Shown here: positions 3,170 through 37,385 of the stretch, piece by piece
Position numbering within the stretch: the stretch's first letter is position 1
How the letters are laid out: the number at the start of each line of letters is the position of its first letter
Assembly (NCBI GenBank): GCA_008632985.1
Contig: QPGO01000338.1
Coordinates: forward strand, 1-52,165
Origin: Psammoneis japonica
Taxonomy: Eukaryota
Length of the DNA stretch: 52,165 bases
Direction of reading: 5' to 3'
Notes under the pieces: model-generated
Databases searched by the model: none
Told to the model about the DNA's origin: nothing
What the model saw: the letters and a program-made list of their open reading frames with translations, nothing else
Program-made: the position numbers and the translations under genes

Positions 3170-5583
3170 CCAGTGCTGACTGTCCAAAGGAAGCGAGACA
3201 TTGATCCGTAGGTGCTGTTGTCCTGCTTTTCTACAACACAAGCTGCAGCAAAGCTACAGCGTGACGGGGTGCCGACCAAGAGGTCGACCAGCGCATTCTA
3301 AGGATTGCCCAAAGAGACAGCAGTCAAGAAGGTGGATGTCATCATTGCTGGGTGTGTTTTGTGCATGAGTTTTTGACTCACTGTTTCATTTCAACGCTGC
3401 CGATTCCTGCACTCCAACAGTGTCAACAACCTTTGTTTTTAGCCGGGTTCGCAAAATTTGCAGCAGTCGCAACAACAGCAGCAGTCACAAGAGTTGCGGC
3501 AGTGGTCGCAAGAGCTGAAGCAGCCGTCGTTCTTCCGTGCCCTGTGGAACACGCTGTCAATGACTGAAGTCAGAAACAATGCCACAGAGATGAGCTCCAG
3601 GACAAAAGCAATGTTTGCAATGCAACAGAACCACGACCAGCTGCTCCAACACCATAGACTCCCATGCTCCTGCACAGCTGATCCAGTGCCACCTGCTCCC
3701 TGTGCCACCCAGCTGCAAAACTTTGACAATCAAAACCACCTTTGAGGGCAGGTGAGCCCCATCACAACGGAGATTCGGGTCTGCAGCGGTTGAAGGCAAT
3801 TCCGTCCTTGGAAGCACCAGTCAACGCCTTGCCGGGGAGCAACCCCTTGGCTCTCGTCGGCCGTCTCAATGTTCAGAGGTGGGGCCACATGAACATTGTT
3901 GCAGAAAAAAATTGCCGAGGCGCTGCTGCAGTCAGCAACCTCGGCAGTGGCCCGTGTCATTTAAAGACGAGGGCAACCTCGTCTGCCGCTTGTGCGCGGA
4001 CTTTTCCAGCCAAAGTGGCAGATTGCAGATAAAAAAAAAGACACAAACCGCACCCAGAATCAACGCATGGACATCAATCTCTTCAAGTGGCGTGTCAATG
4101 GCACCTGAGGCAGCGCCGCAAGCAGCGACACTGCAAAAATCCTGAAACGCCACCCCGATGACTGGCAAACCCTCATTGATGACTGGAGAAGAGTCGACTG
4201 GAACCACAATGATTGCAGTGCAAAACATCAGCGTGCGAGACGCCATCAATGCTCAGTGCTTAAAGGAGGGCTCTTCAATCTGTCAAACAGAAATTGCAAC
4301 GCAAGAGTGAGAGACGAGTTCTAAAAATGGCAAAAGTGCCAACGCATTTCTCATCCATTTTTCACGTTTTTCATGCCTCTCTTTTTGCACATTCGTTTGT
4401 CAGAGAGTGTTTTGATGCGTGCTTTGTTGTCACGGCAGCATCACAAGTGACGGCGACAATTTCAACCACCGGCTCTTGCAGCTGTCATGGTCGATTTCTT
4501 GTTTGGTGTCAGAGGGAAACTCCTGAATTGCGCAGAATGTTGCGCAGAAATCACACCATGAACACTTCAACACCACAATGTCATTTCAGTGTGAGGCACT
4601 GATTTACTTCAACGCACGAGTCACCCGGAGATCTGACACATCGGGCTGCAAAAATGGGGAAAGAAGTGAGGATCGTTCTTCAAACCACTTCCGCAATTTA
4701 GATCAAGCTCGCTTCCCTCGCAACCCCTTCCTCTCTCCTTCCTTTCTCTCCTCTTCCTCCTTCTTTCTCCTCTCCCCTCCCCCCCTCTCTTGGAGTCACT
4801 GACCCCCCCCAAATCAGTCACGAACCACCAGCCGGTCGAACGCTTGCCACTGCTGTAGTTTCTCCATCGTTGCCGTTTCCAACAACTGATCTTGTTGTTT
4901 GCTTGTGTGGATTTGTCGCTGGCTTTGTCCCACAGATGTTGCACACACATCGATCCGTCTCCGGGTGTGGAGCAATTGTTTCATTTCTAGCATTCTGCTC
5001 CCGCAGGTGCTTGGACAGAAAACACTCGCCGGTGTCCGCCTCGAGTTCCCTTGCATCTGGACAGGGCGCTTTCTTCCCCTTCTTTGTTGCTAGCTTGTTG
5101 ATTTCAATTAGATTGAGCACGTTCCGATGAGTGGCCACACCCCGAAAATCGCATGGAATCTTTGCTCGAGTCTCTGGATTCATTCGTTCAACGCATTCCT
5201 TTTCTTCAATTGTGGCGTTGTAGAGAACCAAACCTTCCAGAGTGATCAAATCCATCAATGAATCTCGCATCCCACAGTTTCCACAATGAGCCAGCGAATC
5301 ATGAGCCTTTTCCAACTTTGACTCCGGCCCGAGTGATGTCCGCCACTTCACCAGCTTCGCTCTTGAATGGAGCGATGGAGCCACTGGCCAGTGCTGCTCT
5401 GACTTTGGCACTGGAACGTCCAATCCCTTGGATGTTTCTCTTCCATTTGCCACGGCATCCTTTGCATCACTTGCAAAGAGTGTCAAACCACTGTTTGGAT
5501 CAAGACGTCCCCCAGCGGGTCGCGATCCAACAGAAGCCGCACACTTGTGTCGGGCGTGCCAATCGTCAAGCAAGCTGATTCTC
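3170..5583. other. TpA-depleted block I (CpG largely retained), probably decayed transposon DNA
   Basis: Only a handful of TA dinucleotides in ~2.4 kb by eye; ORF translations almost lack Tyr; abrupt edges (TA-rich GTACGTACGTAT at ~3157-3168, OSCA coding sequence from 5585). Confidence 0.85.
4818..5573 (-). pseudogene. C-terminal fragment of a putative DNA-transposon (possibly MULE-like) transposase, hypermutated
   Basis: LDPNSGLTLF...WRTSLGPESKLEKAHDSL resembles the 'D.KTG..LF' and 'RG.N.LE..H..L' segments of DUF6729/MULE-type proteins (recalled, not searched). Cys-rich tail CVCNICG. Confidence 0.35.
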
Positions 5584-5584
5584 T

Positions 5585-8562
5585 TTACGGCTCCACAAAG
5601 GTCAAATGAATGTAAAAATGGACGTAAAAGGTGATAAGGAGTAGTGATAGAAATATACCACCAGTGGCCGGTGATTCATGAGCGAACAAGTACCCAGCTA
5701 ACACGAGAATGATTAGGTACAGAACCCAAAACAGAATCGTCGAACGCGTGAAGAATAGAAACCCTCCGCCTTCGTACTTGTTACCGTAGATGTAGAGAGC
5801 CATGTACCTTACAACCTTGTACGCCAACAGGAAGAAGCCTGTCACAAAGATGCCACTGAGCGGTGCAATGACTCCGTACAAGGCTCCCACCATGAAAACA
5901 AAAACGAACAACGGTATGAATTCGTCCTTGTGAAATATCTGCGAAAGAAAGAAGAGTACCTCGCGGCTTTTGGTGGGATGCTGCTTGAAAACAACGGCAA
6001 AACCGGAATGCGAGGAAATCTAGCGTACCTTCATATTAGTCCTTAGTTTGTCGAGTCTTCGCTGAGACAAAGACTCTTCGCGCACAATGTTGTGAAGGTA
6101 GAAGAAGGCAACGACATTGTGTATTTGTGACAGTCTTAAGAGAAGCAGTGCCGCTGTAATAATGACATAGCAAATGAAAAACTGAGAGCTGGATGCGACC
6201 TTCTCGCTGACCTCTAGCAGCCAGCCAACGGGGTCGTCAATCAGGTCGTCACTCTGAGCCACTTAATCGTTACCGATAATCACAAAGATAAAGGTAAAGA
6301 GCCGAAAGGCAAAGTACCAACGAAGAATGAAATGGTCGGTCTCGCTAGCAGATTTGAAGCGAACCCATTCGCAAAGGAGCTTAATCAAGAACGGCACTGT
6401 TCTGACAAGAGCTTCGACTAATAGCGCGGGAAGATACACATTCAGAAGGGCAACGACAGATACGTTCTGAGCATTGAACCAGTCGCTATACTCGTTGTAG
6501 CCACGAATAACTGACACCAAAAATGACCACAATAGCAAACCTCCAGTGAGTACAACGCTTGCCCACATCATGCGTGTAACGATCAGCGCTCTATGGAAAA
6601 TAATATAAAAGGGGATGAACCAACCAACAGATAAGATAGCATGAACAGAGAAGAGAAAAGGGCAAATCAACAAACGAACCTTGACACGTGCTCGTTGCCC
6701 CATATGATATCTCGCACTTCAGGTACAGGCGTCAGAATTATTCTTTTTTCATCCCCACCATATTACACTGAATGGCTTGCTGCTTCGTAGTAAGTGATCG
6801 GAGCTCCACGAAAGCCGTACTCGAATGAACATCGTCGTTGTTTGACCCTGTCAGATAGTTCCATCCGAGCTTCCGAGCTAAAGAAGGCTTCTTCTTTTTC
6901 GGAATCTCTCGTCGTTGTTCTTGCGCCAATCGAATGTATTCGGAATCAATTTCATGATTCATTTGTTGAATTATTCTGCATGGTTGAGGAAAGCAGAAAT
7001 GTAAGAACAAGCAAATCTCTTACGTGACGACTGCGATTTGGTGCTGTACTTACTCGTACCGGTAGTGGTACTGAAGCGCCGGATATGTCCTTGTGTCTTG
7101 AACGGTCCCATTTACTGGGGTTCTGTCCAGAACTTTGTTTCCGTGGTTTTCTCGAGTCTCCTGTCGAACGACAATAGTCATTGGTTCTTTCGGCTCGTGC
7201 GGTTGCTTGGTGACAAGGCAGCATCTCTTCACGACTCCACTCTTATTGCTGTCATCTATGTACCGAAAATAATTCGCAAGCTTGTGTACTTTCTTTGCAT
7301 ACACGTTTTCGTATGCCACGATATGTTTTAAGCGAGTCTGGATCAGTTTTCTGAGGTGCTCATTGTTCAACAGCACTTCCGCATGTTTAATCTGTCCTGG
7401 AAAGATGTCGTCAAAGAATGCATGTAGAGCTTTATCATGTCTCTGAAAAGTCGGAACGTATTCTACCAGAGCCGTCTCGCGATACTGTTTCTTGTAATTC
7501 TCTTGAGAAAAATCACCATTCTCAAGGAAGTCGTATCGCAGTGGCAGGAAGAGTTCCCATTCTGTCCACAGTCTTCGCAGAATATACAGAAACTGCATAT
7601 AGAGCAAAGCCATCACAATCCAAAACCTCCAGCTTCCACTCTCTACAGCCATGATCGTCGTGCTATGAAAGCCAGAAGAAGCTTGACCATTTCCTGTTCG
7701 ATAAAGTGGAAGCAAAAGAGGAAGCGAAATAAACAAAGGCCAAAGGGATGCATGGAAACCGAATAGGAGGAATCGGAGTGTCATGAACGCATCAAGCCCG
7801 ACACACCGCAACAGCTCTTGATCCTCTGCTGACAAGGGGCGTCGTGCTATTTCCTCGGATAAAAATAGTCTTGTCGTTCACTCTGACGAGGCTCCTTGTC
7901 TTGAATCAGCAACACCCGTCTCTTTATGAATTTGAGCAAAGCATATATTGCTCGTCTGTCCCAATCTGTTGAAGTCCCTTCCTGTGAGAATCGCAGTTTT
8001 GCAAGTCAATTTGCTTCTTCTGTGCCAATTGTGATATCGCCGTCGTTGCTCTGAGCACTCTTTACTGATTTTCGCATGCGGTTCTTGAATCGAACTCGTA
8101 GTGACGACTTAATCGAGGTGGAATCAACGCTCTTTGTCGCACAAATATGCGTTCGAAGGATACTCCCTAGTTTCGTATTCTTCTCTTTCTTGGACTTTAG
8201 CTGGTGTCCTTCTCCGAACTCGGACGACGACTCGGGTATTGTCTCGTCCTTTGTCAGCATACCATCGCCGAGTTTGTCGGCACAGAAATCTTCGCATTGC
8301 TTTTCATCGCATGACTCACATCCTATGACATGTTCGTAGATGACATTGCCTCCATATCTTCAATCTCGTGGTCATCATCTTGGCAAGGGTCAAAAAACGG
8401 TGATTCTCTGAAGCAGACCCGCTCCGCTTTTTCTAAGTAGGGATCATCGTTCCATTTTTTGGTGTCGTTGTGCAGCGCTAACCGACGCTGCTCTTTTCCT
8501 TGCGAGCTTCCTCCACACAGAGTTTGCGGTATTCTGTATCTGACAAACGAAATCGCCACCAT
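5585..8562 (-). pseudogene. OSCA/CSC1/TMEM63 (ERD4-like) osmosensitive Ca2+ channel, fragmented and 3'-truncated
   Basis: ELLRCVGLDAFMTLRFL, STAFVEL, PEVRDIIW and YIYGNKYEGGG motifs plus many TM segments, spread over ORFs 7050-7835, 6738-7010, 6263-6703, 6020-6262 and 5585-5911 with stops and frameshifts. Ends abruptly at block I. The 5' limit is approximate. Confidence 0.85.
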
Positions 8563-9119
8563 TCAAAGCCCAACCATCCGTTCAAAGGGCCACTGCGCTT
8601 TCTGAGAGGTGGTGGCATTCGCTTTGCATAAACTTCCCGTCAGTAAACTGATTCCACAAACTTGTTCCTTCTTGCGCATTCAAACACCAACAAAAAGAAG
8701 ACACCTTCGACTATTGTAATTGCAATAGAGACATATATCGGTTGCCTGTATCACACATCATGATGAACAGCGAGTACGGCATACCATGGCATTATTGGAA
8801 GGTAAGAGTTCGAGCTCAGTCACTGCATTTGGTGTTCATGAATCAAGTAAGACTTACCATGATGCATTTGCATCCTCCAATTGCACTGTATCATCATTGA
8901 GACCGCCGATGTTGCTGGTCATGGCGTCGAAATAATGACTCGGTCCCGCTTTGACGCTCTTCGACTCCGATCCGTTGCTTCGTGCTTACGCTTCAAAAAA
9001 GGCAAACGAGCAAGAACGAGCCGACGTGGCGGGCGTGTGGATGCGGTGGCGGATGACGACTTGAGTCTTGAGTTGGTCACATCCTGACGCCTTCATGCGC
9101 TTTGCTTTTATGTACGGCT

Positions 9120-11615
9120 GTTTTCTGTTTTTCGGTCTTGGGGACAGACCAAACAACACAGAGCAGGCAGCAGCACGTGCATGCATTCATTGCATTTAAA
9201 ACTCACACTGATGCAAGAATCAAAGCACAGCATTGCTTCTTTTAAAAAGCAGTGTGGAGCTCTTTGCTAAGTTCATCAGAAAGAGGAGATGTCCAGCTGC
9301 GGGCATGGCTGCTCGGATCTCTGTGAGTTGGTCTGCTCTGTTTTCCACTTGAGTGCTGGCGCATGTTGGGTTCCACCTGCAATCTGACCTGAGCTTTTGC
9401 CACTCTTTTGTGCCAGCCGTCTTTGGCCCGCTGCATTGCTTGGTGCCCTGTTGAAGCCAATTCGTGCATGATTGCACACTGTGATCTCAGCAACCAGCGG
9501 CTTTTCTCACCACCACACTTCAGCTGCATTTCTCTTGCCAGCAGCATCTCTGTGTGACCTCTGGGCTCATCCTCCCATGTTGCACCATTCAACAAAGGAT
9601 GGCAACTGATGAAAAAGTTGCTTGTGACAGCCCCCAGATGTTGTTGAGAGCTGACTTGAGTGTGTCAAAAGGTGCTTCTTTCTGCTCTCCCCCGCAAGGC
9701 ATCCGTGCAAACACTTGTTCCATGGGTGGCTCCAACAGCCAGAGAGCAGAGCAGATCATGACATTTGAAGCACTGTTTTTCCGACAATTTGTTCAATGTG
9801 ATTCAAGTTCACAAGCACGCCACTCAAGTCAAATGCCTGTGTCATGTTTGTGTGCAAATGGCAGCAGTCTGCAGTGCACACACATCATGTCACCCAACTC
9901 TCTCCCCCCCCCCCCAACATCAACCCCCCATTTTGACCATTGCTTCCTGCAAAAAAAAGCATTTGAAGCCATCCACTGACAAAGCAAGTCATTGACATGG
10001 CAGCTCAATTGTTTGCAACCACCGGTGCTTGTTTCCAGCACACCGCAGCAGCAACCACCAGCCTGGTTCTTCTGCAGAGGCTTTCACTTCTTTGGCTGAT
10101 TTTTGCAGCAGCCAGAACTTTGCACTTGGACAGATGATCCATCTGTGGCTTCACATGTTGCCAACAAACCAAAAACTTTGTGCCCTTCCTTTTTGGTGGC
10201 ATCACATTTGTCAGCTTGCAGTTGCGCCACTGGCAAGCTGTGTGCAAAGTTCAAAGACATGCCAAACCCTGGCAAGGCACAAGAGAGGAGCACTTCAGGG
10301 TGCCACCATGACCAGGACACATGTTTGACACTGGCAACCCACTCCATGAACTTTGTTTTGAAATTTGCACTTGTGGCTGCCACCTTTTCTGGCTCTTCTT
10401 TGCTCACTTTCTGCTGCACAGTGTGTGGCGCTGGTTGAAGTGCAAGCAGCATGTGCCCACATGCATGTGTTTGTTTTGGATGGAGCAGGTTGGACTTGCA
10501 GCTCACATCAAGATCATTCAATGGCATCTGGACTGCATCAGTGCACTCAGCCCACATCGCTTGTGCTCTGCAACTTGCCTCTGTCTACAGCTGAGCACAA
10601 GGCTGGCTTTGCCCCTGCACAGTTTTCCCCTCTTTTTTGGAATGTGTCATTTTCTCTTCCTGTTGTGTGAACAACACCTGAAGGCTTTTCCAAATCCCAA
10701 ATGTCACACATGTTTGAGTCTCTTGTTTTGTCAGTTTTGGCCACTTTGTTCAAAAACAGTCACGAAATGATCTGTGCCATCTCTGAGCTGGCCATGTTGC
10801 AACTCCAGTCATTGTTGCTTGGATTTTGACTGACTGTCTTTTCCATCTCCTTGCTGGAAGCAGAGTGGGTGTCACTGCTGCAGTTTTGTTGCTGTCTGCT
10901 TGTGTCACAGCTGAGGGGTCAGGGCTGTCATTGCATGGCTCCTTGAGTTGATTGTCTTCAAAGCATCTGGCAAATGTGGAGCTATTTGGTCATTTCAGTG
11001 CCCCCTTTCTGTGGTGCTTTCCACCAACAAACTTGCTTTGGCTCACACATTTTGCACTGAGCTTTCACAACCGCTTTTGTTGTGAAGACTCAACTTGCAG
11101 CTGTGTTGTCTGTCAAAAGGAGCTTGATTCAATGAGGAGTCAGAGGAGAGTCTTTTCATTGTTGTCAGACATGCAATGAGGACAAAGCAATGAATTCAGC
11201 AGAAACACAAAAAATGCATGCAATGGACAGTTGGGATGAAACTCTTCCAAGCAAGTGAGTTGACTCTAAAAACAAGATGCTGGGCTGGAAAACAAAGCAT
11301 TGCAAACATGTGGTCTTTGGAAAAATTGACTGTCAACCCATCAACAAATGACAATTTTGGCACAGTGCCACATTTGCTGCTGAAAATGTGTCAAAAATTG
11401 TTTGGGAGAGCCCACAGTGGCTGCCTTGGCTGGTTTTTGAAAAATTGGAACACCTGTGAAAAGTGCAACCACACATGTGTGACTCTGCTTGTTTCAAGCA
11501 CAAAAAACAAATGTTGCAAACAACTCTAAGAAATGATGCAGCAGGCATGAAATCCCTTGCTGGAACAAGGGACTCTTCACAGAGAGGAGGAACGCGATGT
11601 CAAGTGCAAATTGGT
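9120..11615. other. TpA- and CpG-depleted hypermutated block II
   Basis: TA and CG are both nearly absent and TG/CA dominate; the short ORFs here are Tyr-free and rich in Cys, His and Gln. Confidence 0.9.
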
Positions 11616-12082
11616 GCACTCTAGTTGGTGACCAGGAAGATTGTGTTGTCCTTTATAGCAACTCTTGAGCCAGAAGATTTTCTATAGCTTTGACACCAGT
11701 GTGCATGCCGGTAGACAGTCGGGGGTGTCCATGATGTATGATGCTACTGTAGTGGCGATCTTTCTTTGACATGTGTTGCTGTTGTTTCGCGTTTCGTATT
11801 AACAGCGGCCGTTCTTCCATCTTCCGTTCAGTCTTGCTTGTGTCGTGCGCCAAACTCCTCCCTCTACTCTACTCTCTCTAGCTAGCTAGAGTAGAGAAGT
11901 AGTGGAGTAGTAACTAGAAGTACTGTCATTGAGTAGTGCCCCTGGCAGCTTTACAAGAAAGAGCATAGAGAGAGGGGGGGGAAGAGAGATACCGTACCGA
12001 TGACCAAAACTTCGACCTATTAAAAGAAACTACAACCTTAACATACACATTAAAACTACAATAATTTTGCGGTTCAACGCCG

Positions 12083-13928
12083 CTAGTCGACCGCCTTGGC
12101 TTTCAACTCATTCATTGCAACAGCTTCGTAGGGTTCCTTCTTTTGGTGGGTGAAAACATATACAAGTAGAAGCATGCCGGTACCGACAACTCCTACTCCG
12201 GCTCCAAGCATGAGCTGAAAATGATCCATCCAGTGAAATGACTTATCGGGTTCTCCGATGAAGAGGGTCGACATCATTCCAGTGTCCTCGTGAGCAAGGA
12301 AATGGCAGTGAAAAACCGTCTTTCCTGATAATTCTTGTACTGAACCCAAACGCGAGCCCTAAATTTCGGAGGGACCACAACAGTGTCCCTCCAAGCGTTT
12401 CGATCAAAGACCAGTAAACCCGCAAGCACTTGGTATCTATCGGTGGAAAGCTCAGACCCCATTTCTTTTACCTGAAAACGATTCACATGAATGTGGAAGG
12501 GGTGGACATTGTGGTTGGCGTTGATTAAAACGTATTCAACCGCCTGTCCGGGGTGTGCCGAGAAATCCAAACGGTCTGGATCAAAAGAGCAATAGTCTCT
12601 TCTTATCAATCTGGTGTGCTTGAATGGCTTCGTCTTCTTCGTATCCTGGGGTGAATACCATGTCTTCGATTGGAACGGTCGGGAGCTGCGTGCGGATCTT
12701 TGTGTCCACCGTGATTGTGGCGAGAATTTGATCATGAGGATGACCCCACATGTCAAAGAACTGCATTCCCTGCATTCCTTGTTGAGAAATGACATGCTTG
12801 CCCGGCTTGCAAAACTGAAGCAAAATTTCCTCGCGCTGTCCACCCGCAAAGACAAGCATTGTATGCTTCTTTGGCTTTCGACACGTGACACCATCCGAAC
12901 CAATTACCCAAAACGGAATTGCAGATTCGTCCCAATGGTCGTCTTCCTTTCCTTCGGGGTGACAATAAAGGTATTTTCATTCTCAATGGTCCCGCATAAG
13001 GCTCGTAAATGAAGAACTTCGCCAACACCAACTTCAAAGCTCGGAGTGATTTCCCCATTCACCACAAACGGATGGATCTTGGAGAGGGTCGTTTGTCCCA
13101 TGAGGAACTCATCGACTTCAAGGTTGTGTGTCGGTTTATCCACAGTCTTGAACACTGGATCCCAAATGACAAACTCTTGTGAGTTGGTAATGCCATACGT
13201 GGCAAGCTCGTCCTCCATCGGACCTTCGACATACAAAAGACCAAGCATTCCACTCCAGATCTGGAGAGCCGAGGAGCCGTGCAAATGCGGATGGTACCAA
13301 TACGGCCTGTTGGGTGGTGATCTGGGATGTTAAACTTGTAGCAGTAGCACTCGCCTGGGCTGATGGCAATGTGTGGAGCTTCCGGGTTGTGCGTTCCGAC
13401 GGGATCAAAGATGTGTACTTCAATGCCTAGCCCGTGACGGTGAAGGTTGGTGGCATCAAAGTTCTTGGCCATGTTTGGCCAGTCAAGTTCAAGTTGCTCA
13501 GGATCCTCCACGGGCATCTTGTAGCATTGGTACTTGGTGTGTTCGCCAGGGTTCTCCACCATTTTCCAGTAATCAAAAGCCGTTGGTGGGTTGGGACCAA
13601 TCGACTCTGTAATGTTGTTCTCCAACTTGATCCAAAGCGACTGCCCAGGTTTCATCCGCATGGTTGGCCCCATAAAAGAATCCGATCCTTCCTCAGAGTA
13701 TGTGCGCCCCTTTTACGTGTAATTCAGCATTTTCATGATTCGAACGGACATGGTAAGGTTGTAGTTGACGTCGCCCCCATTGCAAGGATCCGAGCATGGG
13801 ATGAAACCCGTCTCGTCACCCAAGGCATACTTCACAAGTGACACTAGCGAGAGGAGCACAACGTTGCAGGTACTTCTACGCATCCCTTTTGCTCTTTTAC
13901 TAGGTTCAGCGTCAACAACGCGAAGCAT
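12083..13928 (-). pseudogene. Multicopper oxidase (3 cupredoxin domains, C-terminal TM anchor), frameshifted
   Basis: Copper motifs TNLHRHGL, WYH.HLHGSS, HPFHIHVNRFQV, WRDTV and VFHCHFLAHEDTGMM lie in different frames; hydrophobic N-terminal and C-terminal segments. Confidence 0.9.
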
Positions 13929-14683
13929 GAAAGTGATGAAGGCAGAAGATACAAATTATCGAGATCGCGGAGAAATTTGGAAATTGGTCAAATAATTATC
14001 ACCCCAATTCCTATTACTTTCTCACGTTGCACCACCTGCCGATTTTCTCTGTTTCCCGCCACCGCGTCATCGCATGCTCCTGTATTTGCATCCATCTTCC
14101 TCCCTGTTCTTCTCGGAAAGAAACGGTGTCTGGCCAAGTGGGGAGTGAGTTGAGTAGGGCTATGCGAGTATTCATTCTGTTCTTTTGCCTCTCCATAACA
14201 ATTGAGAAGGAGCAGCGGTACAATGTTTGTATCAACGTTGGGGGGATGCGGCTTGAGGCTTGAGCAACAAGGGGGTGCAAAGAGTCGGGCAGCGGGTTAT
14301 TGGGAGGTAGTTTTTTGCATTTCATCCAGAGTTCATCATGCATAGGTAACATTACGACCGGGCGGGGGGTTGCGGATTTGCATTGGGATGGACACAGTCA
14401 GTTGCACAGCCATACTGTACCGTCCGAATAAGGACGACGGACGACAGTCTGCTTTCAATTTGCAGCTTCAGGATTGCGGCAAAGGAACAGAACGATGACT
14501 GCTCTTTCGGCTCCCCGACCCATAACAACACCGCATACATCCCGGAATGGCCTCCCTACCCGCACCGTTGCCTACGCTTGTCGTCATCAACCCACACATC
14601 ATCGATTGCCCCGCCTACTGCCTACTGCCTCAACGCTCACACCCACGCGTACGCACACGCCCCACCCCACGCCAATGTCCTCA

Positions 14684-14970
14684 CCCTTAACTGCGTCTAT
14701 TGCCCCTCTCCACTCGCTCACTCACCGACATCGCCACTTAACTCCCATGCTCAACGCCCGCATCCTTAACTGCGCCTATTGCCCCTCTCGACTCACCGAC
14801 ATTATCGCCACTCCCATGCTCAACGCTCAACGCCCACAAAATTCCTCGCCCAACGCTCAACGCGCAAATCTTCTCGCTCACCTGACGTCCAACGCCCAAC
14901 GACTCTCTCTCCACCGCATTTCGCGATGCACACACATCGCCAACCACCCTCGCATCGCCAACCACCCTCG
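14684..14970 (+). repeat. C/A-rich short tandem duplications (~80-bp unit x2, 18-bp unit x2, CAACGCTC motifs), possibly transposon subterminal repeats
   Basis: CCTTAACTGCG(T/C)CTATTGCCCCTCTC...ACTCCCATGCTCAACGC occurs twice; CATCGCCAACCACCCTCG occurs twice. Confidence 0.75.
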
Positions 14971-15231
14971 CCTCTCCACCAACATCGCACATCCTTGTTG
15001 GCAACAGCTCACCATCGCCCACATCATGCGGCCTCCTCACAAAGTCAGCCTCCTCGGCACGCATCGCAAACCCACCCACCCCTTTTGCCTTTTTTCCCCT
15101 CCAGCCTCTCTCCCCACTGTGTCATCCCACCATGAAAGCAAGTGAGGAAAAGTGAATGCCAAAGTTGTGCATGTTTCCCAACCGCCAATGTGCAGACTGT
15201 CACGCCAAGTCAGGCCTCATGCAACAATGGC

Positions 15232-15605
15232 GACGCGCTCCAGGTCCAGGTGGGACCTCGCACTGCTGAGCTGTGACATCGACAGTTTTTTGAATTGTGT
15301 TGTGTGTCGCGCACACACATTTCTACGTGATTTTGGTGAAATTTTGCATGATTTTACAGTGCAATCATCAGGCTGTCCATTGAACAACTTTCAATGTTTT
15401 TTTCTTCTGCACCAATCTCGAGTGTCTTAAGAATGGCGCAGGGCAGGCGCAGCATCCAGAACTTTGAGTACAAACAGAGACAGATGCACTGCAAACTTGG
15501 CCATTTGCATTGTGTCGAAGACAAATGCATCCATTTGCATGGCTTGCACGTGGAATTCTGCGGGGCAAATGTCACAAAAAGTCCCACCTGGGGCTGGAAC
15601 CCGTC
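15232..15605 (+). mobile_element. Non-autonomous TIR element (MITE), 374 bp, GAC...GTC termini, 4-bp TSD TGGC; partly hypermutated
   Basis: tggc|GACGCGCTCCAGGTCCAGGTGGGAC ... GTCCCACCTGGGGCTGGAACCCGTC|tggc; both ends align with the copy at 17730-18123. Confidence 0.85.
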
Positions 15606-17729
15606 TGGCTCTTCTCAAGAAATTTGACTTGACGAGTCGTTGAGGCAGTTGAAAAGTTCATTTTGCACGGGCAACAAAGCAACAGCAACACCAACTTGAA
15701 AAGAGAGATCAAGCAATCGCGTCTGGTGTCTGACAACTGCTTGTTGGTTGCTTGTCTTTTTCGTCTGCAGACTGGATTGCGCGCAGCTCTCTGCTGCAAA
15801 TGCGCCGCACTTCACTCTGGGGTTCACTGCTCAACTCCAGATCCGCCCATTGTGACATGTGCGTTTTACACAACAAAAGCACAAAGTGTTGCACACAAAG
15901 TTGTGGTGCAGAAGTTGTTGCTTTTGGCAAGCACCTTGCAGTTTTGCGTCTCGGATCGTTTCCATCCTTTTCTCTGGACACCTGCAGTGTGCGGCATGAG
16001 AGGGCTCTCTCGAGTGCCATGAACTTGCCACTGCATGGAATGGTTTTGATGTCTTGAAGCACAGCGGGCTTTTTCCCTTGTTGGATGGATGTGTTTTGAA
16101 GCACTGGATTTTCCGTGTGAATTGATTCAGTGTCAGCTGCAAAGTGCTCTCAGAGCAGCAACAAGTCAACAATTTTTGCACTTGGCATCTGTCAAAAGCC
16201 AGCACATGTGCTGCAACACCAAGTTGTTCATTGTGGGGTCCTTCGTGAGCACATCACAGTGTCTTGGTGAAAAATGCAGAGAGAGAGCGCTTTGAGTGCA
16301 GCCTTGGAACGTTTGCACAACATGAGGACTCCATCTTTGTCCTGGCTGGTTTCATTTTGCACTCAGCAATGAAGCTTTTTTTTTTTGGCAAGGAAGTGCT
16401 TGGCCCCACGCTTGTTGCTTGGAGGCCAAGGCAGAGCAAATTCTGTGTCCTCCATCATTGTTTGTTTGGGCTCAACTGCAAACATGCAACAATGCCATGC
16501 TCACTGTTCTCCACTTTGCAGCACATGCCTGGTTTTGATGATGACACCTCAGGCAAAAAAACTGGAGACAAGCTCTTGTCTCACTTGTTGCTCAACCACA
16601 CCTTGAAGAGATGGCTTCAAACAATCCCAGTCGTGCAGATGAGACAAGTTTTGGTCATTGACTCCTGTGGATCACATGACAAATGACAGTGCATCAAAAG
16701 CCATTGGTTGAGTTACAGCCACTTGACAAAGGCGGCCGCGCTGCTTTGCCGTGCTGCTTCTTGTGCACTGAAGGGAGGAGCACACAACAAAAAAGAGAAT
16801 TCCACCCAAGTTGTCGCCATGCAGCAACCATGACATCCAGAAGAAATGGACAACAAATTGCTCTCAGTTCTTGCAACAACAATTGCAGCACAAAATGCAC
16901 TCTTTGCTCTTGTCCCTGATGCTCCACAAGAGATCTGACACCGCTCTCTGGGAAACTTCCAGGCCTGCAACCCACTCCTGTTGGCAGCTTTTCTTCCCTG
17001 GCAGATGTGTTGGAGCAGTGCAAAGCCACAAATGGTTTGCAGCTGACTTTGCAGATTTGCACTGCTGTTGCTGAACTGATGCACCAAACAGATGCACTTG
17101 GCAAGAAGGAGGAAGTGGCTTGGGGCAACTTTGTTTCCCACCCAATTGTTTGGGCCATTGCTGAGCTGTTCATTTGGAGACTGTTGTCAGCCAAGCAGTG
17201 GCCAGGATCAAATCATTCTGCTGTAAAGCCTGGTGCAAGTCCACCCACTGTCGCTTCATCAGATTGGAAAAAATTTGGGATTTTGTCTCGGACGGCCTTT
17301 TTTTTAAGGTGTGGTTGCAGCAGGCACCTCAGAGGAGATGCAACGGCTGGCAAAACTTTCTTTTGTTGCCTTGCATTTTGGGATGCTTTCAGAATTCTCA
17401 ATGACAGCTGCAAACACAACAAGGCTGCATGCTTTCATTTCGTTGATGTTGTGCCAATGCATCGCTGGATCCAGGCAACTCAACACCTCCATTTCATTGG
17501 CCAGAAAGTCTCAGGGCTTGTGTGCAAGTTAAGAAGCAGTGTTCAGACAACTGTGCAATGTGGCTGCTTTTGATGATGCAATGACTGCATGGTGCAGCAA
17601 CGGATCTGCCGTCACCAGAGAGATCTGGTTGACTCAGTGTCTCCTCTTTTGACAGGCGTTGAGATGCCACCCGACCATTTGGTTGCAAGAACAACCATTC
17701 TTGTGCCTGCCTTCAAGAACCCCAACATG

Positions 17730-18123
17730 GACGGGTTCCAGTCCCAGGTGGGACTGTGTGACATTGGGCCCGTAGAATTCTACGTGCGAGCTCTTAGCAA
17801 ATTTATAAAGTGATAAAAATGTAAATGATCGCCAACAGAAAAAGAGGCAATTTTACGAACGTGTCTCCTCCTTCACACTTGTAGTGCATCATTGACAGTT
17901 TGCCCGGGTGTGTTCTTCAGACATTAAAGAATATACCCAGAGTATTTTCATTCTCATAAATGTTGAAAATAGAAAGCCTTTGGCTTCGCAAAATGGGGAG
18001 TATGAAACAATTTCGTAGAATGTCACACGTAGAAATCTACGTGCGCGACATGCGACGCAATCCAAAACACTCTTGATGTCACAGTACAGTGGTACGAGGT
18101 CCCACCTAGAAATGGAAAAGGTC
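17730..18123 (-). mobile_element. Related MITE, 394 bp, GAC...GTC termini, 4-bp TSD CATG; normal TA content
   Basis: catg|GACGGGTTCCAGTCCCAGGTGGGAC ... GTCCCACCTAGAAATGGAAAAGGTC|catg; opposite orientation to the 15232 copy. Confidence 0.85.

Positions 18124-20006: not shown

Positions 20007-20007
<1 letters not shown>

Positions 20008-20084
<77 letters not shown>
20008..20084 (+). repeat. (CA)n microsatellite, about 38 units
   Basis: Perfect CA run. Confidence 0.98.
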
Positions 20085-20088
<4 letters not shown>

Positions 20089-22319: not shown

Positions 22320-22440
22320 TCCCGTCCGTCGTGCGCAGAGTTTGTCAACACAAAAAAGAAAAAAACACCGCACCATGGCGTGTGAAACTCGAAGACCTAC
22401 CACTCTGTAACTTCTGTAAGGATTTGTCAAGCGACACCGC
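22320..22440 (+). repeat. Dispersed non-coding repeat, copy A
   Basis: CCGTCGT(G/A)CGC..TTTGT..AAAAAAC(AC)ACCGCACCATGG(C/T)GTGT..CCTACCACT..GATTTG(T/A)CAAGCGA shared with 31322-31465. Confidence 0.8.
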
Positions 22441-28201: not shown

Positions 28202-28204
<3 letters not shown>

Positions 28205-28235: not shown

Positions 28236-28236
<1 letters not shown>

Positions 28237-31321: not shown

Positions 31322-31465
31322 ACCGTCCGACCGTCGTACGCTGATTTGTAAATTCACACCACCTCTGCATCCTGCATCCGACACACAAAAAACACACCGC
31401 ACCATGGTGTGTTAATTTCGGAGGCCTACCACTGTATAACCATAACGATTTGACAAGCGATACGT
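31322..31465 (+). repeat. Dispersed non-coding repeat, copy B
   Basis: Homologous to 22320-22440. Confidence 0.8.
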
Positions 31466-31676
31466 TGCACAGTTGCTATTGATACTATGACCAATGTCGG
31501 ACGATTTCCACGTCGAATTATCTATCAGCTACTCGATGGAACTTCAATCGAAGCTATGTCAAAGTTGGGGTCTTCAGTGGCGCTCCCGAGATCAGTTCCA
31601 AGGACTTTAGAATCGTGGACAGGAAAATCAAGGATTTTATCACGCTATCGACAAACCTCACCGTGATTTTGAGAGA

Positions 31677-32348: not shown

Positions 32349-32689
32349 ACTGTTACGCCTCTATCTGTAGCAGTGCACTACAGTTCGAAAAGAACGCAAG
32401 GAGCAGTGTTGCCTTTTCCTTTTAGCTACAGACGCCTATGCTAGAGTAGTAAACGATGAAAATCTTGCTCTAACTAGTGTTATAGAACGGGCTATCGAAG
32501 ATATAAGAGACGACTCTCTCTAGCTAGTCTAGAGTAGTCAACTACCGGTATTATTTAGTCGATGGAGTCAAATAGGTGCTGAGCTGTTCGCAGAACCCCA
32601 CTCATTTCCAATTTTTCTCCTCACTTTTTCTTTTTTCTCTCGCATCTCGCTCACATTTTTCCATATTCTCTGTCGACGAAACAAACACC

Positions 32690-34854: not shown

Positions 34855-35081
34855 CTATCGTGTGATGTACGAGAACACGGAAGAACGTCTGACATTCCTC
34901 GTGTAAATCTCCGATAGCCAAATGCGCTCTAGTAGCAGTACTTGATTCATGGCAACTAGAGTAGACTCTTTGGTCGACTAATAGAAATACTTCGTACGCA
35001 AGCTTTACACAATATCTGACGAAACAGGACAGTAATACAACCACTACACGGTTAAACCTCGGCCCTACTAAATTATCACTA

Positions 35082-37385
35082 GACGCAACGGAATGCGTGA
35101 CAGCATTGGAGCCGCTGTCCATGACGTCCGATTCCGTTCATGCACAACTCAGCAACAAGTCTTTTTTGCTGTCTTTGTCTCCAGCAAGTGCAGCTTGTGG
35201 TCAATTCCCAAGAACCAGAGATGCTTTGTTGACTCCCAGCAGCAGATGGCAAGCAATTGCCTTGCTTCCAGTGTGGCTGTTCCATGCCCTTTTTGTGATC
35301 ATGTCAAGCCAAAATTGCTTGTGTTTTCCACTCCTGCCTGTGCTGTCACATTGATGATTGGGTGAGTTCACACATGCATCAATCTGAACACAGATGAAAA
35401 AACAACTGGTTTTAAATTCTGCTGCACCTTTGCCCAGCATTGCCAGCACCGGCTGACCCACCACACTTCCAGTGCAGCACCAAGTGTGTGCCAGAAAAAA
35501 AGAGCTAGCCAGGAGATGGCACCCAATGAGTGCAGCTGGCAATGGTGCAGGCACCCCAAAGCATGAGCACTTTGTTGCCAATTTTGGGCTCTCACTCAAT
35601 CGTGGACAAAGTGCTGCAACCCAGTTCCTGATCTGGGTTGTTGAGTGTGTCTTGCTGCACTCCTCTGCCTGATCCACAATGAGCACCAGCTGGTCTTTGG
35701 CCAGGCACTCCTGGCATTTGTTGCATGTGGGCTGGCCCTGAAATCTGCCTCAGCCAGTTCTTGTTTTCTGACTGGAACTGTCTCAGCAAGGCCAAGTCAC
35801 ACAACAGTTGAGCCAAGCATTGCGGGGTGACAAACTGTTGCCAGCCAACCTCAGTGTGCACATCTCAAAGGGCTCAATCATGACACTCTGCCTCAGCATC
35901 CAAAAAGCTTCAATGGCCCTCTCTTTGAGCCAAGTGAGTGCCCCAACATTCTAACATCCAAGTCACCAAGACATCGTTGAGGATCCAGAACAGCAGCACA
36001 TCTGTGCTCAACATTTGCTCAGGTCTGACAAGGCCAGCCATCTCTGGAAAGACAAAAGATGTCACAGACTTGACTTGTCATTGCAGCTCCACTCCAGATC
36101 ATGTGGCAGCAGCTGTTCAAGCTCAAGCCCAGTTGAATTCTGCACTGCTCACTGAGCATTTGCTGCTTGGTCTGTTGCACCAAAAAGGCAGGGTTCCAAG
36201 GCAGCTTTCACACTTTTTGCTTGCAAAGCACTGTCATGCATGGTGAGCCTGTCTGAAGGTGCCTGTTGCTTCAGCATCAGATTGCTTGCATGTCCCTGGG
36301 ACATTGAATTGACAAATTTTCCTCAAAGTTCAGTCAACACCTGTGATCTGCTGGGAGTTTTGACCACTCACCAAAACACCCCACCAACCAATTTGCTGCT
36401 GCCTTTTACCCAAGCTGCTCTGTGTTCCTGAGAACATGAGCTGTGCACTAAAATGTGTTCATTGTGCAGCTCCACAAAATCAGCAATGCAGTGACAAGCA
36501 CAGCAGATTGTCTTGAAAATTGTGTGCTCACAGTGTGCCTCATGCACTCTGTTCATTGGATGGCCACGCCTTCCTCACAGCATCAGATTGTGGCTCACCC
36601 TCCACAAAGAGACAACTCACTCTCTGAGCCACTCACTCCAAAGCTTCCCAATGAGAAAAGTGACATGCTTGCCTCGACAACTGCCGCGGCACTTGCTTTG
36701 TTGTGTTGGAACTGTGACTGCAAGCATCATTCTAAAAATGTCTGAGATTGAAAGCATCAGTGTCAAAATGTCTTTGAGATGCACTTTCATTCCTTTTCTG
36801 TGAGAAAGGCAAAAAAGCCTCTGAAAGATTTTCTCATCTACAAAAAATTNNNNNNNNNNNNNNNNNNNNNNTTTTTCCCCCCCCCCCCCCCCTTCCCCTG
36901 CAATCTTTCCACATGTTGCATCTGCTGACCCATCATGCTGTCCCTGGGCAGCTGCAAAATGCCACATCACAAGCAATGGAAAGATCAGCAAATGAAATCT
37001 GTGCATTGCTGTCAGAACTCTGTTTTCACATCATGGCCATGTTTGCACCTCAAATGTTGGTGACAAGCATGGAGCAAGTTGATGCCCTTGCATTGCATTG
37101 CCAGTGGGCAGAAGAGGAGAACACTTGCACAAAACAGAGCCTGAGCCCCAAGAAGCAAAGCTGCCAACAATTGCAGTTCTCTGCACAGAGTCAGTTGGGC
37201 TGTCTGGTGCAAATGAATCACTCAAATTCTGAGAATGATCGTTGAGGGCATTGGAGTTCATGGGAACTGGCACATGGAACTGTTTTTCAGAAGAGCTCAA
37301 AACTGCTGAAAATTGGGATTGCTGATGGTGGCATGTTTGAACATTCGCCCAGCTTTGCACAAAGACAATTTGCAGCATGCGACTG
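35082..37385. other. TpA/CpG-depleted hypermutated block IV (weaker depletion resumes ~37840-38260)
   Basis: Near absence of TA and CG; Tyr-free ORFs; starts within ~230 bp of the DBP4 stop codon. Confidence 0.9.
36850..36871. other. Assembly gap
   Basis: Run of N next to a poly-C tract. Confidence 0.99.

Follow-up and report, generated by a model that had tools for sequence, protein, structure and literature searches.

Hypermutation of TpA to TpG or CpA has been described for viral DNA integrated in the genome of the chlorarachniophyte Bigelowiella natans, in an unreviewed preprint (Mettrop et al., bioRxiv 10.64898/2026.01.13.699255). As reported there, of the 302 new mutations in a mutation accumulation experiment, two viral insertions received 231; A>G/T>C at TpA made up nearly all mutations in these insertions, and the rate was about 6e-7 per site per generation, i.e., 1000 times background. 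In addition, 124 clusters in the genome are poor in TpA and rich in CpA+TpG, with an excess of unannotated and transposon-like sequence among them, and a DNA adenine deaminase, for which an ADAT2-like candidate is put forward, is proposed as the agent (Mettrop et al.).

Other known systems resemble this one in part. In ascomycetes, RIP densely mutates tracts with sharp edges by context-specific transitions, thereby disabling repeated or invading DNA for good, and the resulting dinucleotide skew is so extreme that homology searches miss the element; it nevertheless acts by C>T mainly at CpA, thus making TpA, and mutates all duplicate copies in the sexual phase. In vertebrates and plants, methylated transposons lose CpG by 5mC deamination, which gives CG>TG/CA changes limited to silent domains, but cannot remove TpA. 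In animals, ADAR and APOBEC hypermutation is likewise deaminase-driven and directed against parasitic nucleic acids; APOBEC causes C>T at TC/CC, while ADAR targets dsRNA with a 5' U preference. Finally, deaminases of the TadA/ADAT2 type act on a base with T or U directly 5' of it; laboratory adenine base editors are DNA-active TadA-type forms, and no enzyme of this type is known to target chromosomal domains in vivo. In amphioxus, ADAT2 is able to act on DNA, deaminating A, for which it prefers GAA rather than TA, as well as C, for which its motif is 5'-TCG-3' (PMC10354150).

Here, we describe the same phenomenon as in B. natans, at saturation, in the diatom Psammoneis japonica (Stramenopila). 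The window, i.e., the whole stretch of DNA analysed, comprises 52,165 nt (GCA_008632985.1, contig QPGO01000338.1). The preliminary description of this DNA took the pattern to be undescribed, which the B. natans preprint contradicts; its four-block layout stands, with edges displaced by a few to about 130 bases, except that the third block is in fact two, split by 17730-18129. The features are as follows.

3167..5585, no strand: block 1, TpA-erased (core 3300-5585: 13 TA, o/e 0.09; CG o/e 0.71)
3198..3329, plus strand: short Cys/His-motif fragment, a marginal match in opposite orientation to the coding remnant
4809..5585, minus strand: 5'-truncated coding remnant in block 1 (protein and profile matches)
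5588..8726, minus strand: flanking RSN1/CSC1-type channel gene with introns (Pfam), normal composition
9114..11621, no strand: block 2, TpA- and CpG-erased (core 9269-11526: 3 TA, 18 CG)
12021..14606, minus strand: flanking multicopper oxidase gene (Pfam) between blocks 2 and 3, normal composition
14804..17729, no strand: block 3a, TpA-erased (TA positions, dinucleotide counts)
15191..15610, plus strand: inside block 3a, copy A of a high-copy element (~400 bp, terminal inverted repeats)
17730..18129, minus strand: copy B of the same ~400-bp high-copy element, separating blocks 3a and 3b
18130..22150, no strand: block 3b, TpA- and CpG-erased (8 TA and 41 CG in 18108-22150)
35081..37386, no strand: block 4, TpA- and CpG-erased (7 TA, 18 CG)

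Block 3b also contains a CA/TG microsatellite at ~19999-20093, and block 4 a run of 22 N at 36850-36871. The best named relatives of the window genes are from diatoms. The RSN1/CSC1-type gene is expressed, contigs of run X2 skipping 86-90-nt stretches there, and the last of its visible exons stops at 5589, by a GTAAAG donor, exactly at the edge of block 1.

Over five core segments (13,862 bp), TpA o/e is 0.04 vs 0.59 in the flanks, with 40 TA seen vs ~558 expected from the flanks, and CA and TG rise to o/e 1.72 and 1.82 (flanks, 1.15 and 1.17); the blocks thus nearly lack TA and are flooded with TG/CA (about 1.8), as originally claimed. The reported loss of CpG also holds overall (264 CG, o/e 0.32 vs 1.00 in flanks), but it is patchy, with a CG o/e of 0.71 in block 1, 1.07 in 14804-15190 and 0.07-0.25 elsewhere. 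Per 1000 dinucleotides, the balance of blocks vs flanks is -37.4 for TA, -37.5 for CG, +40.0 for CA and +35.6 for TG. Sliding windows of 500 bp run over the whole window confirm the low-TpA stretches (~3250-5300, ~9100-11400, ~14750-17400, ~18000-21900 and ~35100-37200), where TpA o/e is 0.00-0.15 vs 0.4-0.9 in flanks; by block, TA o/e is 0.02-0.09. The longest TA-free gaps reach 1667, 1318 and 847 bp, for which the chance at the flank TA frequency is ~7e-30, 9e-24 and 1e-15, respectively. Taken from all TA positions, the block edges are 3166/3300 and 5221/5586 (block 1), 9113-9268/10586 and 11527/11622 (block 2), 14803/15324 and 21585/22151 (block 3), and 35080/35413 and 36839/37387 (block 4), some of them being graded across ~100-150 bp. 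In silico conversion of TA and CG in the flank sequence reproduces the block composition (r 0.94 for all 16 dinucleotides, r 0.82 for the 12 other than TA, CG, TG and CA), with shifts in AT (-13.5), GC (+19.2) and GA (-16.2) beyond the prediction of this conversion model, the flank being an imperfect stand-in for the ancestor.

In blocks 2-4, no protein domain and no period-3 signal were found and DNA-run depth is that of single-copy DNA; no viral gene was found in the blocks, and an RY-recoded self-comparison detected no relatives of blocks 2-4 within the window. The ancestral state of these blocks is therefore taken from the flanks, and the polarised comparison concerns block 1 only. The proposed directed conversion of silent or repetitive DNA is supported, but the label "foreign" or "repetitive" is not supported for blocks 2-4. 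A transposon gave rise to at least one block, the rest being anonymous DNA.

The transposon-derived one is block 1, which is a multi-copy, rearranged and truncated remnant of a transposon-like element. Its DNA-run depth is 791-1165 vs about 95-160 in unique flanks. The 4809..5585 remnant corresponds to residues ~665-900 of a eukaryotic protein family of ~1000-1180 aa (375 relatives, best E 2e-43; profile match at 4896-5573, iE 1.7e-65), and 11 of 11 full-length relatives match the window at this remnant only. The 3198..3329 fragment resembles a Cys/His motif located at the C terminus of this family (E 0.001, 50% identity over 40 residues; profile positions 1002-1035, iE 0.06). As to the identity of the family, the DUF6729 match is weak, and a Mutator-like transposase is a lead only.

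Direction of change was assessed by comparing block 1 with its other copies in the DNA run, carried on contigs of depth 295-992 (about 100-150 for unique DNA), at the best-supported 40 of 534 differences. Among these 40, 19 have TG/CA in the window and TA in the other copies, with no instance of the reverse; 6 have TG/CA in the window and CG elsewhere, 4 (two pairs) oppose TG and CA, 1 has CG in the window and CA in the other copies, and 10 are other changes. At these same sites most sister copies are unconverted, which, together with the single-copy depth of blocks 2-3, differs from RIP. Where the block 1 ORF aligns with 32 relatives, each of the three conserved Tyr columns (3/3) is now His CAC and one conserved Arg is now Cys TGT, so that the loss of Tyr and gain of His and Cys noted at first holds where it can be polarised. 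Because sister copies keep TA and conserved Tyr codons have become CAC, the blocks have arisen by mutation and do not reflect native composition.

The opposite reading, in which the blocks are foreign or unusual DNA natively avoiding TA and CG, or else a sequencing or assembly artefact, could draw on the lack of identifiable relatives, genes or repeats in blocks 2-4. It is nonetheless highly unlikely, as the converted sites read TA or CG in block 1's sister copies from this genome, and homologous proteins have Tyr where the window encodes His. In addition, neither the flanks nor related contigs (58,448 bp) come anywhere near the TA o/e of 0.02-0.05 that the blocks maintain over kilobases, and the blocks lie between intron-bearing host genes on one contig. 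Contigs of accurate reads from a public DNA run are identical to the blocks, although this run, the sole one found, may share the assembly's own sample and is hence not fully independent; one of them spans the 14803 boundary (14380-15257, 0 differences). Taken together, these exact matches and the spanned boundary make an assembly chimera or a foreign contaminant unlikely.

The mutated A is preceded by T and strongly prefers a following pyrimidine (T-A-Y). Survival of TA in blocks relative to flanks is 0.017 for TAT, 0.04 for TAC, 0.106 for TAG and 0.176 for TAA. Of the 40 surviving TA, 23 lie in YTAR and only 2 in RTAY, the flank share of YTAR being 193 of 1461 (Fisher p 1.4e-10). Likewise, RCAR/YTGY gain 14.2 per 1000 vs 5.0 for RTGR/YCAY (Fisher p 8e-5), and a T-A-Y model predicts the 12 other dinucleotides with an RMSE of 6.8-7.2, compared to 9.2 without preference and 11.2 with the opposite one. 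The polarised sites, from the best 40 of 534 differences, go in the same direction: A is followed by Y at 15 of 19 TA sites vs ~60% expected, a weak test alone, the rule is kept at 8 and broken at 3 of the 11 asymmetric sites, and none of the 19 hits is at TAG. Both strands are mutated without clustering, with TG 1486 vs CA 1568 over the five segments, and TG and CA follow one another at random (runs z -1.25 to +1.35).

These contexts fit a TadA-like deaminase and speak against both Pol eta and ADAR. The +1 pyrimidine seen here is reminiscent of the UAC in the substrate loop of bacterial TadA. Conversely, the preference of ADAR at +1 is for G, and its edits form strand-coordinated clusters. 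An ADAR-like A-to-I editing of dsRNA, fixed in DNA via reverse transcription or RNA-templated repair, would agree with the U that ADARs favour before the edited A (Mettrop et al.), and the blocks may be silenced repeats yielding dsRNA. We still hold this route to be very improbable, in view of the pyrimidine after the mutated A, the better survival of TAG and TAA, the about equal conversion of both strands with randomly interleaved TG and CA, and the partial conversion in place of a nested element. Moreover, the source of block 1 is a DNA-transposon-like gene rather than a retroelement. ADARs are also, to our knowledge, confined to animals.

Loss of TpA and loss of CpG are separable within the same domains. 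At the left end of block 3a, 14804-15190 has 0 TA at a CG o/e of 1.07, while from 16000 onward the CG o/e of this block falls to 0.24. Block 1 likewise combines a TA o/e of 0.09 with a CG o/e of 0.71. Ordinary 5mC decay can thus not account for TpA loss, as had been argued from the start; here TpA loss is faster than, and independent of, CpG loss. The high-copy element is equally telling: TpA is mostly erased in copy A (4 TA) and CpG kept (16 CG), in contrast to copy B, of normal composition (22 TA, o/e 0.68; 17 CG). DNA-run depth is ~41,000 for copy A (bin 15006-15672) and ~45,000 for copy B (bin 17674-18340), and the two copies are distant kin only: over 169 well-aligned columns they also differ by 16 transversions and by 13 transitions of other kinds. 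Conversion therefore acted in place, with nested copy A part-converted and block-splitting copy B intact, the latter having been either inserted after mutation or exempt from it.

This separability also bears on two repair-based explanations. Error-prone patch repair by a Pol-eta-like polymerase, recruited by 5mC-derived T:G mismatches and causing A>G at WA, was the first mechanism suggested for these blocks. TA is the strongest WA hotspot of Pol eta, and T:G mismatches must have arisen in the blocks, since they are CpG-depleted. However, stretches whose CpG is still untouched have lost all their TpA, so that these mismatches cannot be the trigger; AA and TT are slightly up rather than depleted (84.6 and 81.8 per 1000, the flanks having 80.3 and 73.9), a single transition type makes up the conversion, which is near 100%, and the 12 other dinucleotides shift only as a knock-on of the TA and CG conversions. 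We thus regard this mechanism as improbable. A G:T mismatch correction biased to G:C in silent chromatin (TDG/MBD4- or Vsr-like very-short-patch repair), working on replication errors at TpA, would erode TA to TG/CA, dispense with a deaminase and naturally accompany CpG methylation, and very-short-patch repair in E. coli is credited with having turned CTAG into CCAG/CTGG. Full TpA erasure beside intact CpG opposes such a side effect of methylation-linked repair, and the rate reported for B. natans (Mettrop et al.) would exceed any plausible supply of uncorrected replication errors, making this explanation less probable still.

A more serious, if still unlikely, alternative is a single dual-activity ADAT2/TadA-type deaminase that would act on A after T (TpA>TpG) and on C before G, best after T (TCG>TTG), CpG loss being then enzymatic and not slow 5mC decay. 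In blocks 2, 3b and 4, the edges of TpA-poor and CpG-poor domains lie no more than about 50-100 bp apart, sliding windows revealed no CpG-poor segment with normal TpA in the window, and CpG loss is graded by context, TCG being lost most (block/flank ratios, with flanks as ancestor stand-in, of 0.22 for TCG, 0.30 for ACG, 0.36 for CCG and 0.54 for GCG; 0.08 for TCG in CG-low blocks), which recalls the activity of amphioxus ADAT2 on both bases and its TCG motif (PMC10354150). On the other hand, complete TpA loss at untouched CpG, in 14804-15190 and copy A, would require very different rates for the two activities, each of the four NCG contexts is down by at least 70% in CG-low blocks, as CpG methylation predicts, and non-CpG TC contexts barely move (TCC 0.87, TCT 0.91). 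In addition, hypermutation in B. natans is, as reported, almost purely A:T>G:C (Mettrop et al.).

We therefore favour, as probable, a rewriting in place of silenced DNA by two context-specific transition processes, likely a TadA/ADAT-like deaminase and 5mC decay. The first, fast and essentially complete, would turn A into G within 5'-T-A-3', whichever the strand, yielding TpG or CpA; its agent would most likely be an adenine-to-hypoxanthine deaminase acting on DNA, TadA/ADAT-like or with another CDA fold, and directed to particular chromatin domains. Such a deaminase, the second mechanism initially suggested, fits better than Pol-eta-like repair given the T before and the pyrimidine after the mutated A, the enzyme itself being deduced from its footprint. 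The second and slower process would turn CpG into TpG/CpA in the same domains, most likely through 5-methylcytosine deamination in CpG-methylated silent chromatin, diatom transposons being reportedly CpG-methylated by DNMT5a (PMC9998398).

The B. natans system shares with the present one A:T>G:C change only at TpA, with TpG or CpA on either strand, kb-scale domains with normal neighbours, clusters short of TpA and rich in CpA+TpG that favour unannotated and transposon-like DNA, and a DNA adenine deaminase as the proposed agent (Mettrop et al.). It differs in its host, a rhizarian, in its viral targets, compared to a transposon remnant and anonymous intergenic DNA here, and in extent, with a Rho of 0.45 reported for the NCLDV region vs a TA o/e of 0.02-0.09. 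The rate was measured there, whereas the blocks are a historical footprint only. The main text of the preprint mentions neither CpG, which is also lost here, nor a trinucleotide context (Mettrop et al.). What P. japonica adds is therefore the near-saturated loss of TpA, the T-A-Y context, the unclustered mutation of both strands and the separability of TpA and CpG loss. As both processes would yield TG/CA and neither restores TA or CG, such domains would drift to a TA-free, CG-poor state, and the function of the rewriting may be a RIP-like, permanent disabling of invading DNA.

TpA is almost absent from four regions of the window (52,165 bp, G+C ~48%), where its observed/expected ratio (o/e) in sliding 500-bp windows is 0.00-0.15 and that of TpG and CpA reaches 1.5-2.7, as against 0.4-0.9 for TpA and ~1 for CpG in the remainder. 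The blocks, and two of the genes that flank them, are as follows:

3167..5585, block 1
5588-8726, minus strand, RSN1/CSC1-type channel, an intron-bearing flank gene
9114..11621, block 2
12021-14606, minus strand, multicopper oxidase, an intron-bearing flank gene
14804..17729, block 3a
17730-18129, minus strand, copy B of a ~400-bp element, of normal composition (22 TA, 17 CG), interrupting block 3
18130..22150, block 3b
35081..37386, block 4

The four blocks of the preliminary description are thus real, with edges lying within a few bases to ~130 of those it proposed, except that its single third block is split by the normal 400-bp element at 17730-18129. When every TA and CG is listed, the edges fall at 3166/3300, 5221/5586, 9113-9268 and 11527/11622 in the left half, and at 14803/15324, 21585/22151, 35080/35413 and 36839/37387 in the right half; at all eight, TA density changes over ~10-130 bp, and the blocks are therefore discrete kb-scale domains beside normal DNA. 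The longest TA-free gaps measure 1667, 1318 and 847 bp, for which the chance probabilities at flank TA frequency are ~7e-30, 9e-24 and 1e-15. Five core segments taken from the blocks (13,862 bp) hold 40 TA instead of the ~558 expected from the flanks (o/e 0.04 vs 0.59) and 264 CG (o/e 0.32 vs 1.00), with CA and TG at 1.72 and 1.82 (1.15 and 1.17 in the flanks), while AA/TT shows no depletion. Blocks 2-4 occupy nearly all the space between adjoining expressed genes, and since the gene-free interval 22250-24500 is of normal composition, the process that produced them is selective. To the right of block 4, positions 37700-38150 have a TpA o/e of 0.33, a CA o/e of 1.61 and a 228-bp TA-free gap, and may be a partly converted fifth patch. 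A CA/TG microsatellite within block 3b (19999-20093) raises local TG/CA counts and was left out of later statistics. The N letters, which are assembly gaps or withheld letters, comprise a single one at 32068 and a run of 22 inside block 4 (36850-36871).

Several observations show that this composition was acquired by conversion. The deficits in the blocks, 37.4 TA and 37.5 CG per 1000 dinucleotides, are balanced by surpluses of 40.0 CA and 35.6 TG. Conversion of flank sequence in silico matched the shifts of the 16 dinucleotides with r 0.94, and those of the 12 dinucleotides without direct involvement with r 0.82. The direction of change was read by comparing block 1 with its other copies in X1, a public DNA sequencing run: among the best 40 of 534 differences, 19 oppose TA in the sister copy to TG/CA in the window, with no converse case, and 6 oppose sister CG to window TG/CA; the others are TG against CA (4, forming two adjacent pairs), CG in the window against CA (1), and other changes (10). 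The variant contigs have a depth of 295-992, which means that several or most copies carry these letters and hence that TA is the ancestral state. Intrinsic TA-poverty of the family, which the preliminary description had wished to see checked, is accordingly not found in the block 1 sister copies, which keep TA at these sites (best 40 of 534). Traces of the conversion are also visible in the coding remnant of block 1:

4821-5675, minus strand, longest ORF of block 1, with 375 relatives among 1.84 billion representatives

Over its 123 conserved alignment columns, all three conserved Tyr within the matched part are His (CAC), and Cys (TGT) stands in place of one conserved Arg and two conserved Phe, in line with the Tyr loss and His/Cys gain first noticed in translations of the blocks; a fourth "Tyr" column, at ORF position 1, falls beyond both the block and the matched part. 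In the blocks, A>G/T>C transitions are thus confined to TpA and yield TpG/CpA, and the targeted, TA-specific mutation suspected from the sequence is borne out by both the mass balance and the polarised sites (19 vs 0 among the best 40 of 534).

A chimeric assembly, contamination or erroneous base calling is unlikely to account for the blocks. They lie between intron-bearing genes on one contig, and X1 contigs match the window with 0 differences over 14380-15257 (which spans the 14803 edge), 15612-16342 and 20424-21040. X1 contains 80% of sampled words from a 10-kb stretch and is possibly from the same sample as the assembly. Its contigs cover blocks 2 and 3 (at least 90% likeness) at the depth of the unique flanks, ~95-160, and block 1 at 791-1165, making the latter multi-copy. 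A second run, X2, is RNA-like, as its contigs omit 86-90-nt stretches of the channel gene; its depth falls from 125-400 over genes to 0-8 across the greater part of blocks 2 and 3, low cover not being equivalent to silence. Some X1 contigs, at about half the summed depth, omit 105-150-nt patches inside blocks:

11120-11271, omitted patch
16688-16978, omitted patch
17854-17973, omitted patch
18795-18901, omitted patch
20892-21011, omitted patch

These could be strongly differing haplotypes, as expected from independent conversion of each allele.

The conversions prefer a particular sequence context. Among surviving TA, YTAR accounts for 23/40 vs 193/1461 in the flanks (Fisher p 1.4e-10) and RTAY for 2/40, and survival ratios rise from TAT (0.017) and TAC (0.04) to TAG (0.106) and TAA (0.176). 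On the product side, RCAR/YTGY, expected if the converted A lies between T and a pyrimidine (T-A-Y), gains 14.2 per 1000, whereas the alternative RTGR/YCAY gains 5.0, the amount due to CpG conversion alone (Fisher p 8e-5). Simulations with a T-A-Y preference reproduce the other 12 dinucleotides with an RMSE of 6.8-7.2, vs 9.2 without preference and 11.2 (r ~0) with the opposite one. These four compositional lines support the rule that the converted adenine precedes a pyrimidine. The polarised sites agree with it weakly: a pyrimidine follows the converted A in 15 of the 19 (TAC 9, TAT 6, TAA 4, TAG 0; best 40 of 534 differences), and 8 of the 11 sites whose context differs between strands obey it. 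Both strands are affected about equally, with 1486 TG and 1568 CA over the five segments, and the order of TG and CA is random, as in the flanks (runs-test z -1.25 to +1.35), which excludes strand-coordinated clusters.

This context bears on two possible sources of A>G changes. ADAR enzymes, which edit RNA, prefer a 5' U/A and a 3' G neighbour and leave strand-coordinated clusters. An ADAR-like activity would explain the 5' T of the blocks, but three features disfavour it: the pyrimidine at +1, with TAG and TAA surviving best, the even use of both strands without clusters, and the derivation of block 1 from a DNA-transposon-like gene. The A:T phase of somatic hypermutation, in which Pol eta produces A>G at WA, would likewise include TA among its targets; it would also include AA, and AA/TT is undepleted in the blocks. 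Moreover, TpA loss needs no earlier CpG loss. Pol-eta-type mutagenesis is therefore disfavoured, and of the two mechanisms initially put forward, a deaminase is favoured over error-prone repair of this type.

CpG loss accompanies TpA loss in a less uniform manner. The statement that the blocks have mostly lost CG holds for most of their parts (o/e 0.07-0.25), but neither for block 1 (0.71) nor for segment 14804-15190 (1.07). In the latter and in the adjacent element copy A, TA is lost and CG kept, and no CG-poor segment with normal TA occurs in the window; TpA loss is thus separable from CpG loss and earlier. Where both are lost, their edges agree to ~50-100 bp. Decay of CpG by 5mC deamination is limited to CpG, whereas the blocks lose TpA more fully, and also where CpG is intact. 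The block/flank ratios of CpG tentatively suggest a grading by the 5' base (TCG 0.22, ACG 0.30, CCG 0.36, GCG 0.54), the flanks standing in here for the ancestral make-up.

As to the DNA that was targeted, block 1 is a rearranged, 5'-truncated remnant of a transposon-like gene. The best relative of its ORF (E 2e-43, 40% identity) and others align through residues ~670-900 of proteins ~1000-1180 aa long; 11 of the 11 full-length relatives tested match 4809-5630 only, and a 30-relative profile matches 4896-5573 (iE 1.7e-65). On the opposite strand, 3198-3329 marginally resembles the Cys/His motif at the C-terminus of this family. Ten relatives gave a single Pfam match, DUF6729, below threshold, and a protein-language-model look-up placed the best relative near DUF6729 clusters (0.94-0.97), the score for Mutator-like transposases (0.80) being a lead only to a possible kinship.

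Blocks 2-4 gave no domain, relative or viral match in the searches run. Against Pfam, the 70 stop-to-stop ORFs of at least 90 aa within the blocks returned only Clp_N, under its cut-off, and six-frame translations of the four blocks (stops as X) only UL42 and Clp_N, as sub-threshold chance matches. The profile of 30 full-length block 1 relatives has no match in blocks 2-4; a tblastn hint at 16697-16855 (E 0.005), which this profile did not confirm, was dropped. No relative of ORF 16920-17570 was found among viral contigs. Self-comparison of the window, whether by plain blastn or after purine/pyrimidine recoding, which is unaffected by the conversions (shuffled controls scoring up to 65), revealed no kinship of the blocks to one another or to other parts of the window, the ~400-bp element excepted, and neither target-site duplications nor terminal repeats were seen at block edges. 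Period-3 signal in RY space is lower in the 32 block windows (median 0.66) than outside (1.47), a difference that no more than hints at a non-coding nature of blocks 2-4, since the intron-bearing flank genes are weak in it as well.

The ~400-bp element is itself of interest, as a second copy lies inside a block:

15191-15610, plus strand, element copy A, inside block 3a (4 TA, 16 CG)

Its ~100-bp conserved ends are terminal inverted repeats, and its X1 depth (~41,000-45,000 vs ~120 for unique DNA) implies a copy number of several hundred; its appearance is that of a highly abundant MITE-like element. Over 169 well-aligned columns, TA or CG in copy B faces TG or CA in copy A 9 times and the converse occurs once; a further 16 transversions and 13 other transitions separate the two copies, so this comparison gives weak support for conversion.

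Near the right end of the window lie:

46790-51950, plus strand, three long open reading frames of 717, 284 and 764 aa

One of these frames contains a TNP-like RNase H N-terminal domain (E 1.5e-5), and the stretch looks like an intact transposon of another family; with normal CpG and moderately low TpA (o/e 0.3-0.6), it is free of hypermutation. At the left end, tandem repeat units of ~80-86% identity (700-1810; G+C 0.56-0.60, high for the window) are enclosed by an 845-aa open frame on the minus strand (18-2552), which has no Pfam match. The last visible exon of the channel gene stops at a minus-strand GTAAAG donor that coincides with the block 1 edge (5583-5589); X2 contigs exit at 5583, and neither their 30-base loose end nor two variant continuations occur anywhere in the window. 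The 3' end of this gene may have been replaced or displaced by the transposon fragment, or another allele or paralogue may be expressed. Near-identical relatives of the two flank proteins were absent among 5.8 billion proteins (best matches 43-57% identical), and the named relatives of the channel exon are all diatoms (Amphora coffeaeformis, 51%; a cluster with a Fistulifera solaris protein, 55%). By these relatives the window is probably diatom DNA, and it does not come from Bigelowiella natans. Nine related metagenome loci around channel-gene homologues (58,448 bp) hold no 500-bp window with a TA o/e <0.25, in a sample too small and too gene-rich to speak for other species.

The pattern had been thought undescribed, but the same TpA signature is reported in a recent preprint by Mettrop et al. 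(bioRxiv 10.64898/2026.01.13.699255, 2026-04-14), who followed B. natans through mutation accumulation in cultured lines; it is the only report of the signature, in diatoms or elsewhere, retrieved by a literature search that covered few subscription journals. According to this preprint, one integrated giant-virus and one virophage region received 231 of the 302 new nuclear point mutations, at ~6e-7 per site per generation or 1000x background, and these were almost only A>G/T>C, all at TpA. It also describes 124 clusters of 1-kb windows that are TpA-poor and CpA+TpG-rich, with unannotated and transposon-like genes over-represented in them, and puts forward an ADAT2-like protein as the agent; its main text makes no mention of CpG, trinucleotide context or diatoms (10.64898/2026.01.13.699255). 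The blocks share with B. natans TpA-confined transitions in discrete kb-scale domains. They differ in having also lost two thirds of their CpG, whereas the B. natans spectrum is almost purely A:T>G:C, G:C>A:T showing no excess; as CpG loss may be a separate, slower process, this weakens the identity of the spectrum rather than the kinship. In addition, an ongoing rate was measured in B. natans, while the blocks are a historical footprint read from contigs of one sample. The blocks are thus a further case of a kind described once before, in a different supergroup lineage, to which they add the saturation of TpA loss, the T-A-Y rule, strand symmetry without clustering, a coupled yet separable CpG loss, and a transposon target with sister copies that lack the conversion where they were compared.

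Fungal RIP acts in the opposite direction: its C>T changes at CpA drive TpA/ApT up and (CpA+TpG)/(ApC+GpT) down, whereas the blocks have TpA at 0.04 and CpA/TpG at ~1.8. In its trigger, a sequence duplication of which all copies are hit, RIP may differ as well: block 1 is multi-copy, with the majority of copies unconverted (best 40 of 534 sites), and blocks 2 and 3 are at single-copy depth. Among potentially relevant diatom enzymes, the available account describes CpG methylation of transposons by DNMT5a, and reports that many species carry DNMT4 enzymes akin to RID, the RIP protein of fungi (PMC9998398). Amphioxus ADAT2 is reported to deaminate both A and C in DNA, with the motifs 5'-GAA-3' and 5'-TCG-3', respectively (PMC10354150). 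A single dual-activity ADAT2-like enzyme behind both the TpA and the CpG signatures is a less likely reading, though the most interesting of the alternatives.

While the data establish the conversions with their direction, context and order, what lies behind them is a matter of interpretation, and the best-supported explanation is a domain-targeted deamination of adenine on DNA with T-A-Y specificity, together with slower CpG decay. Adenines would be deaminated in place on both strands and the resulting I replicated as G, while CpG would decay more slowly in the same silent domains, most simply through 5mC deamination. The enzyme could be of the TadA/ADAT class, whose targets have T/U at -1 of the deaminated A, as TpA is the only adenine context erased in the blocks; it may be directed by chromatin and serve in defence. 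More speculatively, and with the odds rather against it, a T-A-Y-specific, natural dsDNA adenine deaminase could be an old genome defence shared across SAR (diatoms and chlorarachniophytes), acting alongside the CpG-eraser or identical with it, as a "mirror-image RIP" that drives invading DNA to a TG/CA sink.

To our knowledge, hardly any case is known in which an enzyme naturally causes A>G mutations in chromosomal DNA; for want of a natural deaminase acting on DNA adenine, the adenine base editors used in the laboratory had to be evolved. With a second, independent lineage carrying the TpA signature, the isolated case of B. natans becomes a class, and the shared signature points to a conserved effector, which a comparison of both proteomes could reveal. 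The +1 pyrimidine rule provides a biochemical fingerprint for candidates and can be checked against the mutations published for B. natans. In diatom genomes, DNA of this kind, a quarter of the window, may be a transposon graveyard that is invisible to homology-based repeat annotation and for which TA-free tracts offer a simple detector; silenced DNA would carry a heritable mark besides CpG methylation.
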